A stretch of DNA of 64,000 nt from an uncultured Pseudomonadota bacterium (GCA_963819375.1 CAWFVU010000009.1:876649-940648); one strand, 5' to 3'; positions 29,355 through 38,832 are shown, counted from the stretch's first letter. Numbers and translations are program-made. The notes: generated by a model not told the origin, from the letters alone.

Positions 29355-29811
29355 CGGTGCCGCGAACCCTGTGGCGACGAGAAACCCGCCCGACCATCCT
29401 GCGGAGCTCGTCACGCCGCCTTCCTGATGTAGCGGTGGTGCAGGCCGCTGACCTTCAGAAGAGCGAATACCTTCCCGGCATGATCGCGTGCCGCTCCGGA
29501 ACCAAGACCGTCAGCCGTTTCAGTCGTAGCGCACGAATCGGGATCAATCGATCCTCGAAGTCGTAGGGAGCGTCCGCCGCTGCGGCGAAGGAGACCGGAA
29601 TGGTCAGGCCAGTGGAACGCTGCGCGGCTTCGACCGCCTTCTGGACGACCGGGGTCAGCGGATGGAAGGTGTCGATGTCGTCGGTCGGCCGGGCGTGCAA
29701 CGCTCCGACGGTCAGACGAAACACATTTCGAGACTCCGTGTCATTAAGGCCTGCGGTAGCTCGATTCCGATAAAAACAATGCGGCTCTCCCGTGTGTCCA
29801 TGGCCGTCCAA
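29355..29811 (-). pseudogene. remnant of nucleotidyltransferase (AbiEii/DUF6036-like) gene, copy A
   Basis: TDDIDTFHPLTPVVQKAVEAAQRSTGLTIPVSFAAAADAPYDFEDR...LRLKRLTVLVPERH is about 90% nt-identical to the gene at 62154-62727. It is frame-broken, overlaps the COG0523 gene, and its tail ...GLHHRYIRKAA* recurs at 38575-38690. Confidence 0.5.
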
Positions 29812-30707
29812 GGGGCGCCGACATGGTGACTCATCAATTGGTGGACACCTTGGAAGATCACCCTGCGGTCCTGACCCACTACGTTTAGCACGCCCTTATA
29901 GCGAAGCAGCGCTGCCCCGTGACTCTTCACGATTGCGTTCATGAACTGACCGAAGCGAACGCTATGGATCGGCCGGTGCGACCTGAAGACGAAGCTTTTG
30001 ACGTCGTCGTCATGGTAGTGGTGTCCGCCGGCGTGATGATCGGCCTCGCAGGGCCGCTCGGGTTCAAATTCCAGATCGGGGGAAAGGTTGAAGCCCCTCA
30101 CATCAAAAACCTCGGTCAGCGCGACGTCTCCAAACAAGGTTATGCTCTGCTTCGCGCGGGGGTTCATTCTCCTAAGCCTCTCACGCAGGACGGCGAGCGA
30201 ATTACTCTGGACGAGGTCGGCTTTGCTGATGAACAAGCGGTCAGCGAAACCTACCTGGCGGCGGGCTTCGCCGCGGGCATCGAGCTGCTGCATGGCGTGC
30301 TTGGCGTCGACCAACGTCAAAATCGAGTCGGGCCTATAAGAGGCAGTGATCTGGGGGCCGAGAAAAAACGTCTGGGCGACCGGACCGGGGTCGGCCAATC
30401 CGGTAGTTTCGATGACCACCTGGTCGAACGCGATTTCACCAGCACGCCGACGCTCCGCAAGCTGCGCCAGCGTCGCCCGCAGGTCGTCTCGGATGCCACA
30501 GCACAAGCACCCATTGGTGAGCTGAATAATCTGCTCATCACCGCCTGAGACGATGAGCTCGCTGTCGATGTTCTCCTCGCCCAGCTCATTTTCGATCACC
30601 GCGATCTTCCGTCCGTGTGCTTCCGTTAGCACGCGCCGCAGGAGCGTAGATTTGCCCGACCCGAGAAATCCAGTGAGCACGGTGGCGGGAATCAACGTTT
30701 GCGCCAT
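29712..30707 (-). CDS. COG0523 family metal-chaperone GTPase (CobW/ZigA/YjiA-like)
   Basis: P-loop GFLGSGKSTLL, metal-binding GCLCCG motif, and a His-rich stretch HHAGGHHYHDDD. Confidence 0.9.
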   Translation of the reverse strand: MAQTLIPATVLTGFLGSGKSTLLRRVLTEAHGRKIAVIENELGEENIDSELIVSGGDEQIIQLTNGCLCCGIRDDLRATLAQLAERRRAGEIAFDQVVIETTGLADPGPVAQTFFLGPQITASYRPDSILTLVDAKHAMQQLDARGEARRQVGFADRLFISKADLVQSNSLAVLRERLRRMNPRAKQSITLFGDVALTEVFDVRGFNLSPDLEFEPERPCEADHHAGGHHYHDDDVKSFVFRSHRPIHSVRFGQFMNAIVKSHGAALLRYKGVLNVVGQDRRVIFQGVHQLMSHHVGAPWTAMDTRESRIVFIGIELPQALMTRSLEMCFV

Positions 30708-30710
30708 TTG

Positions 30711-32060
30711 CTATCCGAGTAGAACCACCGTGTAGCCGCCAAAGACCACACCTCCCTGAGAGGCATTCACACGGTAAACGTGCGCCTCTCCCGGTCGAGG
30801 GGGGTGATCGGTGGTGGAAAAGGCGACGTGTTTGTCATCCCCATGAATCGTTTGGCTCGCCGCGCCGCCGGCGCTCGGAAAGCCGCCACCCGTCGTCGTA
30901 GGTGGCGACAGCAGCGGCGTCCCGGTCGGCGTGGCCATGACGGGAAATACGCCCCGTTGCTGGGTTCGGAGTTGAAGCCAGGGCACGGTGCTGGGCGGGA
31001 CGCGCTCCACCGCCACCGTCGCGGGGGCACCGAACAGCGGCCCTACCTTGATAAGGAGCGGCTGCTCCATGGCCAGGCCGGTCGCCTTCTTTAGCATACG
31101 AGCAGTGCTCGTCACTCCAGGCGCCATGCGAGCAGTGCTCATCACTCCAGGCGCATTGACATGGATGTTGCGCTGCGCGACGTGGCGATTCCAAGACGCG
31201 TCAAACGGTGGCTGCCCGGGCAGGTCCGAGGGGTTATCCCAGATGCGTACGAGCAGGCACTCGTGTCCGCCGTTGACAAAGGACGGGACCCACGACTTGG
31301 GGCACTTAATCAGCGCGTGTGACCGGCCGCTACCCTTCGCGCCAAGCGAGGTTACCGTCTGGGCGATGAGGTTGACCGAGTCGGCGCTGATCCCCAGCGA
31401 GGGATTAACCCAATAGAATTCGACCAATACTTCGTTCGCAGACGCGTTGCCAAAATTCCAGACGTGCGCGTAGATGGTGTTGGGCTGCCCGGCCTCGGCT
31501 ACCTGACCAAGGGCGGAAGGAACATCGGGAGCGGCTGAAGGGTCAACCCCGGAGAGAATGAAGATATCGGGACTCTCCCAGAATGGCGCGCCGACCACGG
31601 GCCGGGCGCCGAGATCCGCAGGATTGGCCCGCATAAACAGGTAAGGCAGATTGAGATCGGCCCGCGGGCCGCCCCACACTCCGGGGCGATCGGGTTGATT
31701 GATATCGCCTTTCGTCAGGCCGCCGCCTGGTGTCGGGCGGCCAGAGCCCGTTCCCGCCGGCCGCGTCGGGCGGCCGGGCCAATCGACGCCTCGCCCGCCC
31801 GCCCCACAATCCGAACCTCCACCGCCGCTTCGATCACGCTCACGATCGGCATCGTCGAAATACCATATTCGCTCAACGATCTTTCGCGCGCGGGCCGGCC
31901 TCTCACATTCCTTACGCGGCGAGCACCCCGGGCCATCCGACCGGGGTTCACAATCGCGACTTCCCTCCCCCGGCTCAGGGGCGTTTTTTTGAGCGACGCG
32001 ATTTGGTTGACCCGGAGCCGCGGCCTGTCGAGGAATTTTTGGTCTTTTGTCTACTGACAT
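30711..32060 (-). CDS. hypothetical protein (about 450 aa), operon member
   Basis: Stop lies 3 nt before the COG0523 ATG. Contains an internal 30-bp tandem repeat. Start is uncertain because the longest ORF overlaps the upstream gene by 86 bp. Confidence 0.6.
   Translation of the reverse strand: MSVDKRPKIPRQAAAPGQPNRVAQKNAPEPGEGSRDCEPRSDGPGCSPRKECERPARARKIVERIWYFDDADRERDRSGGGGSDCGAGGRGVDWPGRPTRPAGTGSGRPTPGGGLTKGDINQPDRPGVWGGPRADLNLPYLFMRANPADLGARPVVGAPFWESPDIFILSGVDPSAAPDVPSALGQVAEAGQPNTIYAHVWNFGNASANEVLVEFYWVNPSLGISADSVNLIAQTVTSLGAKGSGRSHALIKCPKSWVPSFVNGGHECLLVRIWDNPSDLPGQPPFDASWNRHVAQRNIHVNAPGVMSTARMAPGVTSTARMLKKATGLAMEQPLLIKVGPLFGAPATVAVERVPPSTVPWLQLRTQQRGVFPVMATPTGTPLLSPPTTTGGGFPSAGGAASQTIHGDDKHVAFSTTDHPPRPGEAHVYRVNASQGGVVFGGYTVVLLG
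31087..31146 (-). repeat. 2 x 30-bp in-frame tandem repeat (APGVMSTARM/APGVTSTARM)
   Basis: catacgagcagtgctcgtcactccaggcgc and catgcgagcagtgctcatcactccaggcgc, 27 of 30 identical. Confidence 0.6.
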
Positions 32061-38268: not shown

Positions 38269-38574
38269 AAGAAGACTGCAATCGGGACCCCTGCCATCAC
38301 CCATCTCGTCTCGCCCGGGGCCGGCCGCTCATCCTCCGGGTGGTTCCGGCGCCCTGTTCGAATACGTAGGCGCAACGGGGCTGACCGTGGTCGGTCCCGC
38401 GACCGGCGCCCGGTACCGCTTCGATCGGCCGGGCGCTCGGTTGCAGGTCGACGTGCGCGATCACCCGGCGCTGGCCAGAGTTCCCGTGCTCAGGCACGTG
38501 GGCTGAAGGCGGGGCCCGGTCGAGCGCTTCGACCCCGAGGTAGCTCACCCGTCTACTCGGGTCCGCCGTCGTCC

Positions 38575-38690
38575 CGCAAGGCCCTGTGGCGGCGAGAAGA
38601 TTGTCCGACCGTCCTGCGGAGCCCCATCACGCCGCCTTCTCGATGTAGCGGTGGTGCAGGCCGCTGAGACGCGCTTGCAGATGCTTCCCA
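38575..38690 (-). pseudogene. short remnant of nucleotidyltransferase 3' end, copy B
   Basis: About 80% nt identity to 29355-29465. Encodes ...KHLQARLSGLHHRYIEKAA*, matching KVFALLKVSGLHHRYIRKAA* in copy A. Confidence 0.4.
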
Positions 38691-38800
38691 TCTGCCGTAC
38701 CTCCGGCCGCAGGTGGGAGTGGCCCTGCGACTGATTAATACTCGGTTAGTACGGCAGGAATGTTTCTGATGGGCCTGAGCCAAAAACTCAGCAATTTCTG

Positions 38801-38832
38801 CGGGGTGGACGGGACTTGAACCCGCGGCCTCC
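38801..38832 (-). other. tRNA 3' fragment (variable loop, T-arm and 3' acceptor strand; att-like remnant)
   Basis: Minus-strand GGAGGCC-GCGGG-TTCAAGT-CCCGT-CCACCCC-G has a canonical T-loop and stem. No complementary 5' acceptor strand or anticodon arm is present upstream, so it is not an intact tRNA. Confidence 0.4.

Follow-up and report, generated by a model that had tools for sequence, protein, structure and literature searches.

Two gene modules between insertion-sequence relics and tRNA fragments: an apparent low-GC integrative island read as a probable stepwise mosaic

Islands integrated at tRNA genes carry a regenerated tRNA gene, a displaced 3′ fragment of it and a tyrosine integrase, and the Islander displaced-fragment rule places the island 5′ of the displaced fragment (PMC4383910). 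In integration of the Mx8 type, attP lies within int, the excisionase gene uoi lies upstream, and the chromosome offers attB1 and attB2 (PMC11610982, PMC4383910). The present study concerns a 64,000-nucleotide stretch from an uncultured Pseudomonadota bacterium (GCA_963819375.1, CAWFVU010000009.1:876649-940648), hereafter the window. An earlier note on this DNA had proposed one such island at 29355–38832, low in guanine plus cytosine (GC), bounded by direct repeats, with a tRNA fragment and an excisionase-like gene at its right edge, and carrying an operon for a phospholipase C (PLC)-like protein and a COG0523 protein together with a gene for a Trp/Cys-rich protein. The interval is read here, with a probability of roughly 0.55, as a mosaic, assembled stepwise, of genes gained by horizontal transfer and scars left by mobile elements, not as one integrative island. 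No intact low-GC island is present, and the region is an ordinary, immobile and decayed accessory stretch.

Two modules of three genes each, A (29712–34716, minus strand) and B (35795–38506, plus strand), stand back to back between two relics of insertion sequences (IS), and a cluster of tRNA halves and an excisionase gene follows on the right. From left to right the features are:

29367–29482, minus strand: left IS481/IS3-like relic, consisting of the outer terminus (CCTGTGG...), a 3′ untranslated region of ~45 nt and the last ~22 codons (..AGKVFALLKVSGLHHRYIRKAA, then stop) of a DDE transposase gene
29479–29693, minus strand: internal fragment of a DUF6036 gene, codons ~41–110 of ~190 (homologues P0002–P0008, 79–94% identity, PF19502)
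29712–30707, minus strand: module A gene 3, a GTPase of the COG0523/G3E family (cobW, E = 1.5e-51; CobW_C, E = 3.1e-23)
30711–32126, minus strand: module A gene 2, a conserved protein of ~430 aa (orthologues 67–74% identical in loci L013–L015)
31975–34716, minus strand: module A gene 1, a 913-aa all-alpha protein with a short Zn-dependent PLC-like His/Asp motif at residues 224–303
34717–35794, no strand: divergent spacer between A and B, 1.08 kb, 57–59% GC by count
35795–37855, plus strand: module B gene 1, a 686-aa Trp/Cys-rich protein with immunoglobulin (Ig)/FN3-like beta-sandwich domains
37931–38268, plus strand: module B gene 2, a DUF1360-like small membrane protein (DUF1360, 20.9 bits against a cutoff of 21)
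38249–38506, plus strand: module B gene 3, a conserved 85-aa protein (50–51% identity by tblastn, at the same position in loci L017 and L018)
38582–38692, minus strand: right relic of the same IS type and orientation, outer terminus and last ~21 codons (..GKHLQARLSGLHHRYIEKAA, then stop)
38801–38846, minus strand: lone tRNA 3′ half with an Asp/Glu-type T-arm and acceptor, from the anticodon loop (CTTTCAC) to the discriminator base
38986–39171, plus strand: orphan excisionase-family helix-turn-helix gene, 61 aa (HTH_17, PF12728, E = 2.7e-10; TIGR01764)
39172–39214, plus strand: second lone tRNA 3′ half with a CAU anticodon, Met/initiator-like (Rfam tRNA positions 30–71, 19.5 bits)

The direct repeats at the two flanks are real, and the window contains these two copies only. 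The core (29367–29452 and 38582–38668) is 85% identical over 87 columns, including an exact 26-mer, and it scores 65 in local alignment, where shuffled sequences give 16.9 ± 2.5; over the ~110-bp copies as delimited in the earlier note the identity is 73%. Their label as the 3′ end of a nucleotidyltransferase gene was mistaken. The minus-strand translation of each copy gives (V/L)SGLHHRYI(R/E)KAA followed by a stop codon. Metagenome contigs were scanned for a 21-mer of the repeat, and in four of them (L007, L008, L009 and L011) this sequence forms the end of a ~340-aa rve_3/HTH_32 gene. Two other contigs, L010 and L012, also hold the 21-mer, but in an unrelated open reading frame (ORF); viral contigs gave no match. 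In the intact transposase genes of this type rve_3 is recognized with E = 8.8e-10. The two best NCBIfam scores of an intact relative, IS481 at 85.9 bits (cutoff 224) and IS3 at 82.4 bits (cutoff 160), are both under cutoff, and the IS type is related to IS481 and IS3 while being a formal member of neither. A hidden Markov model (HMM) built from the four intact transposases aligns by its last 22–23 positions only, at 29414–29482 (independent E-value, iE, 2e-4) and 38630–38692 (iE 0.097), and tblastn of the transposase is likewise limited to 29414–29482 at the left copy. Similarity between the copies ends at CCTGTGG, ~45 nt past the stop codon. The elements of L007 and L008 have terminal inverted repeats of 21–26 bp starting with CCTGTCC (CCTGTCCTTCGCCAAAACGTCGT), ~190–210 nt past the transposase stop. 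Judged from these alignments, each repeat is the right end of an insertion sequence, terminus plus transposase tail, whose body has been lost. No left inverted repeat of the IS was found in the window. Attempts to name the repeat from its short peptides gave no NCBIfam match, and only chance matches by tblastn against plasmids.

The two copies also seem to have been cut to different depths. About 22 codons remain at the left and possibly ~33 at the right, where decayed coding sequence may reach ~38720, the extra right codons being judged by eye from translations; directly upstream of the exact 26-mer the sequences diverge strongly. Because of the apparently unequal truncation and the divergent patch, the repeats are more readily understood as two relics that were truncated separately than as a single duplicated site. 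A duplicated att site is ruled out by the IS identity and by the same apparent inequality. The repeat was also considered as the 3′ end or downstream region of a DUF6036 gene, and this is ruled out by the lack of similarity in L004–L006 and in the window's own copy near 62 kb.

DUF6036 sequence is present beside the left repeat only, with none beside the right one, and it is DNA separate from the 86-bp repeat. The Pfam title of the family (PF19502) is "Nucleotidyltransferase of unknown function", and a full-length homologue matches PF19502 with E = 9.8e-15. In tblastn with a full-length homologue, the fragment matches codons 41–110 and is 92% identical to the consensus homologue, and at the nucleotide level the fragment is 94% identical to the paralogue near 62 kb. 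The 3′ break of the fragment abuts the IS tail; at the 5′ break, module A stops ~20 bp short of this truncated resident gene, counted from the COG0523 stop codon. Both joints are illegitimate. In related contigs the family forms a two-gene module with an upstream partner, and because this module is multi-copy and often truncated there, it may be a selfish unit resembling a toxin-antitoxin system. A near-complete module of DUF6036 gene and upstream partner occupies 62163–63439 (minus strand), 95% identical to metagenome copies, with a frameshift near codon 90 of the DUF6036 gene, and a decayed copy of the partner with in-frame stops lies at 60796–61161 (plus strand).

A tRNA fragment at the right edge and an AlpA/excisionase-like gene at 38986–39171 had been reported before, and both are genuine. 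The fragment is longer than 38801–38832: it extends to 38846 on the minus strand, its T-arm reads GCGGG/TTCAAGT/CCCGT, and it is 88.9% identical to tRNA-Asp genes in E. coli and 86–91% in phages. In Rfam it receives weak tmRNA/tRNA-clan scores only, none above threshold in 28–41 kb. The excisionase gene passes the cutoffs of both TIGR01764 (35.7 bits, cutoff 28.8) and PF12728 (40.8 bits, cutoff 27). Directly after its stop codon starts the second tRNA half, which is absent from the earlier note and flagged as 5′-truncated by Rfam. The two halves face outward and bracket the excisionase gene, ~330 bp apart, and both break at the anticodon stem-loop. Neither fragment has a second copy or a partner in the window, including the neighbourhood of 29.3 kb. 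The search for an intact tRNA gene matching 38801–38832 likewise ended without one, ARAGORN finding 0 tRNA genes over the 64 kb. The missing integrase was confirmed within the set scanned: neither integrase nor transposase domains are found by Pfam and NCBIfam scans of the island ORFs or by Pfam scans of 20 of the larger flank ORFs from 13.9–26.7 kb and 40.5–63.8 kb, a set that leaves out 1–13.9 kb and smaller ORFs.

By the Islander rule (PMC4383910) the element side of both tRNA halves is the ~330 bp between them, with the excisionase gene. The minus-strand half places its element to the right and not to the left, where 29–38.8 kb forms the host flank. The cluster is a separate scar of tyrosine-integrase activity directly right of the modules, the fossil of one or more integrase events of which later deletions have left next to nothing. 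A phage origin was sought for the excisionase gene, module B and the scar region, and no relative was found in viral contigs. Phage records gave no myxophage match beyond the tRNA-like ones, and for the excisionase a single weak match of 47.6% in an unannotated contig.

The low GC content holds for part of the interval. Against a window mean of 65.0%, 32.1–35.6 kb has 57.7% GC and is the lowest 3.5-kb stretch of the window (standard deviation of 3.5-kb windows, 2.6%), and the spot counts given earlier are reproduced (43% for 33121–33180, 38% for 33301–33360). The dip is limited to 29.7–35.8 kb, about 6 kb at 57.7–59.5%, instead of the 9.4 kb that had been claimed. The right third, 35.6–38.8 kb, is normal at 64.9%, and the claimed interval as a whole has 61.6%. 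Codon usage divides in the same manner. GC at third codon positions (GC3) is 0.71–0.72 in the three genes of module A versus 0.811 ± 0.066 for 27 non-island genes, ~1.4 standard deviations below, while the Trp/Cys-rich gene of module B is typical of the host (GC3 0.79, B = 0.19). By the Karlin-type measure of codon bias, the PLC-like gene (914 codons) has B = 0.29 versus 0.13–0.18 in other genes of more than 800 codons. Cassette A of the window also lies clearly under all three of its orthologues in GC3 (0.84–0.92), including orthologues whose hosts are no richer in GC. The atypical composition is confined to module A.

Module A recurs as the same three-gene cassette at 67–79% identity in L013, L014 and L015, in unrelated neighbourhoods, and the COG0523 GTPase is the last gene in each (75–79% amino acid identity). 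The PLC-like protein matches PF00882 with 30.0 bits (cutoff 26.8) over 80 residues only. It has 341 homologues at 53–82% identity, including proteins of Phenylobacterium, Acidobacteriota, Burkholderiales and Actinomycetota. Across ~860 residues it is 64–68% identical to proteins of Alphaproteobacteria and Acidobacteriota, and this speaks for transfer of the family between phyla. The AlphaFold2 (AF2) model of the protein (mean predicted local distance difference test score, pLDDT, 69) has no fold match in the PDB at E < 0.001, and phmmer against the PDB gave nothing relevant. The ORF is ~48 residues longer than its orthologues (913 versus ~865 aa) owing to a basic C-terminal extension, and the extension (31975–32126) runs ~150 nt into the 5′ end of the next ORF. 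That next ORF, gene 2, has no Pfam or NCBIfam match and probably starts in truth near 31940. Within it lies a 30-bp tandem duplication at 31095–31154 (minus strand), 93% identical, which encodes APGVMSTARM/APGVTSTARM. No match to module A was found on plasmids. In L014 a tRNA-Gly(gcc) gene (9512–9586, minus strand) precedes the module A orthologue by 415 bp, and an IS630-type transposase is found 4 kb off; the cassette stands 5′ of this tRNA gene and therefore would not have been integrated through it in the usual way. The company of the COG0523 GTPase and the PLC-like protein suggests a metallochaperone-client pair, although a literature search on COG0523 with phospholipase C returned nothing relevant.

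The spacer shares no nucleotide homology with the orthologous loci past ~20 nt upstream of the PLC-like start. An ORF of 278 aa within it (34728–35564) has GC3 0.62 and no codon-position contrast, and among 1.84 billion representatives it finds itself and one weak match (E = 5.5e-08, a repetitive 1032-aa protein). It is an ORFan and probably not a gene, and as such it was rejected as a fourth gene of module A.

Module B is found as a three-gene set in L017 and in L018, a Burkholderia plasmid on which the set lies between IS3-type transposase genes. The Trp/Cys-rich protein has 256 full-length homologues at 44–77% identity, in Terriglobales, Paraburkholderia, a Burkholderia plasmid and Stellaceae, and its AF2 model (pLDDT 85.7) matches generic Ig/FN3-like beta-sandwich folds only. 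In L017 and L018 the 686-aa gene is followed by homologues of the DUF1360-like gene, of 44–48% identity. In the window the DUF1360-like gene is frameshifted by a 1-nt deletion in a G-run at 38051, and in L016, a second assembly of the same species, it is an intact ORF of 112 aa; the frameshift could be a sequencing error or strain variation. In none of the five other loci (L013–L015, L017 and L018) do modules A and B come within 10 kb of each other. To judge from this distribution, A and B appear to be unrelated modules, each travelling alone between phyla. The view that the PLC-like/COG0523 operon and the Trp/Cys-rich gene are cargo stands insofar as the genes are horizontally mobile and lie amid relics of mobile elements; what falls is their unity, for they belong to two modules that are separate elsewhere.

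The flanks place the interval in its host. Among the genes of the window are many for PAS/GAF histidine kinases and for response regulators, and one for a DUF4215 Cys-rich repeat protein. In a scan of genome contigs, the nearest genome representatives of the left-flank lipoprotein gene (27952–29046) are two Myxococcaceae metagenome-assembled genomes (56–61% protein identity), and because of this the region is assigned to the accessory portion of a chromosome of Myxococcota type. No record matched the lipoprotein sequence exactly. The common ground of these two genomes with the window is the gene pair at 26.6–29.0 kb only, with no further synteny. L016, a 100.9-kb ENA contig, is colinear with 21973–44715 at 99.65% identity and has the same structure. 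An apparent synteny of L003 with 61.5–61.8 kb was rejected, the match being to a response-regulator paralogue. Upstream of the lipoprotein gene, which starts at 29046, an AT-rich stretch (29047–29170) holds the near-palindrome GTCGGAATCATCGTTATCATCGGTCGAC, a possible candidate operator. A promoter scan of 28.9–39.4 kb found no sigma-70-type site.

A stepwise history would account for these observations as follows. Modules A and B would have arrived by separate horizontal events, because A is atypical in GC3 and in codon bias (B = 0.29), B is host-like, and the two are unlinked in five other loci. Module A would have come later, or from a donor of lower GC3. The target would have been a locus near former tRNA targets that already held IS and toxin-antitoxin insertions. 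Illegitimate deletions would then have stripped away the bodies of the insertion sequences, the integrase and the greater part of one or more integrative elements. Everything would now be fixed in place, the direct repeats being debris and not recombination sites. Several points weigh against this reading. No close relative without the segment was found, and arrival at this exact locus is argued from composition and from distribution elsewhere only. Four other genes of the window have GC3 as low as that of module A. The PLC-like orthologue in a host of 71% GC has GC3 0.91, yet lies 6–8 points under its flanks, and the dip over module A is partly intrinsic to the encoded proteins. Two IS relics in direct orientation that bracket exactly A and B are also what a decayed composite transposon or an IS-mediated cointegrate would leave. 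The order of events is beyond reconstruction from one genome, and both their order and their number are inferred.

The main rival takes up the bracketing relics: A, B and the DUF6036 fragment would have been delivered together as a composite transposon or cointegrate insert, whose IS copies were later cut to right-end stubs of ~115 bp. The two relics belong to the same IS subgroup, have the same orientation, stand 9.2 kb apart and enclose exactly the foreign-looking genes, no further IS copies exist in the 64 kb, and module B does lie between IS3-type transposase genes on the Burkholderia plasmid. Nevertheless, the left stub is the outer end of its IS and the right stub the inner end, which demands two independent deletions of opposite polarity. 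The stubs are also 85% identical in the core and much less directly upstream, no left inverted repeat remains, and the right-hand IS has lost its outer end. The modules that such a unit would have carried differ in codon usage and are unlinked elsewhere. A single IS-bounded delivery is on balance unlikely, though it deserves more weight than any other alternative. A bolder version of it, in which A and B are the halves of one undescribed inter-phylum mobile system that moved here as a single IS-bounded unit, is a long shot. If it were true, a dedicated COG0523 metallochaperone would mature a large all-alpha enzyme resembling Zn lipases, and this enzyme would work together with a Trp/Cys-rich protein of several beta-sandwiches and a small membrane protein.

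It can also be argued that no recent transfer took place. The genes would be long resident, the GC dip would stem from the amino acid composition of the PLC-like and COG0523 proteins together with an AT-rich regulatory spacer, and the mobile fragments would be incidental. The PLC-like gene is indeed low in GC at the first and second codon positions in each host examined, the GC3 of module A stays within 1.4 standard deviations of the other window genes, and the only other assembly of the species, L016, has the same structure. A long-resident cassette is, however, hard to reconcile with a GC3 well under that of the orthologues even in hosts of equal or lower GC, with the 64–68% identity to Alphaproteobacteria and Acidobacteriota over ~860 residues, or with an end ~20 bp from a truncated resident gene; this explanation is quite doubtful, if slightly less so than the bolder version above. 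Least probable of all is the model of the earlier note, a single tRNA-targeting island at 29355–38832 with the repeats as an att-type duplication and the integrase lost. The right edge does have an excisionase gene and an authentic tRNA 3′ half, the cargo is of a horizontally transferred kind, and GC is low over part of the interval. The model fails on the identity of the repeats, which are IS termini with transposase tails and not a duplicated target, and on the tRNA half, whose element lies to its right (rule of PMC4383910). Nothing near 29.3 kb resembles either tRNA fragment, the 64 kb hold no tRNA gene, cognate or other, the scanned ORFs hold no integrase, and the right third of the interval is normal in composition.

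Our study suggests that the stepwise mosaic is of value mainly as a correction. Direct repeats, a scrap of tRNA and an excisionase gene together mimic a textbook island, and here these apparent marks come from three unrelated kinds of debris: the ends of insertion sequences, a fragment of a toxin-antitoxin-like gene, and wrongly oriented scars of integrase activity. Only one of the two cargo modules gives the low-GC signal. Large myxobacterial genomes commonly contain decayed mosaics of this sort. The wider interest lies in the cargo only, two conserved and uncharacterised three-gene cassettes across Proteobacteria, Acidobacteriota, Actinomycetota and Myxococcota, in one of which a COG0523 metallochaperone is encoded beside a large protein with a predicted fold unmatched by any solved structure.

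Compared with islands of the Islander type, the locus shares two displaced-type tRNA 3′ halves broken at the anticodon stem-loop, an excisionase gene adjoining them, and mobile cargo nearby. It differs in having neither an intact tRNA gene nor a cognate repeat pair, and no integrase in the scanned ORFs. Its fragments come from different tRNAs in opposite orientation, ~330 bp apart, and its cargo is on the host-flank (3′) side of the nearer fragment, 38801–38846. The target of myxophage Mx8 is a tRNA-Asp gene, and the likeness to it lies in the myxobacterial host and in an Asp-type tRNA 3′ half beside a small excisionase-family gene; unlike in Mx8, no int remnant is detected in the scanned ORFs, and the anticodon loop is Glu-like (TTC). 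With COG0523 metallochaperone systems it has in common a cobW/CobW_C GTPase that closes an operon opened by a gene with a Zn-PLC-like His/Asp motif, although the candidate client is an uncharacterised all-alpha protein of 865–913 aa without a PDB fold match. Composite transposons and cointegrates resemble the locus in that cargo lies between two same-orientation relics of one IS type; here only ~115 bp per IS are kept, with no transposase and no left inverted repeat, and the surviving ends are the outer one at the left and the inner one at the right. The intact IS481/IS3-like elements of L007, L008, L009 and L011 differ from the window relics in their distance from stop codon to terminus (~190–210 nt in L007 and L008 versus ~45 nt). 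They have in common the C-terminal motif GK..Q....(G/S)GLHHRYI..AA before the stop codon, and the intact relatives share with the relics an exact stretch of 21–26 nt and a terminus that starts with CCTGT.

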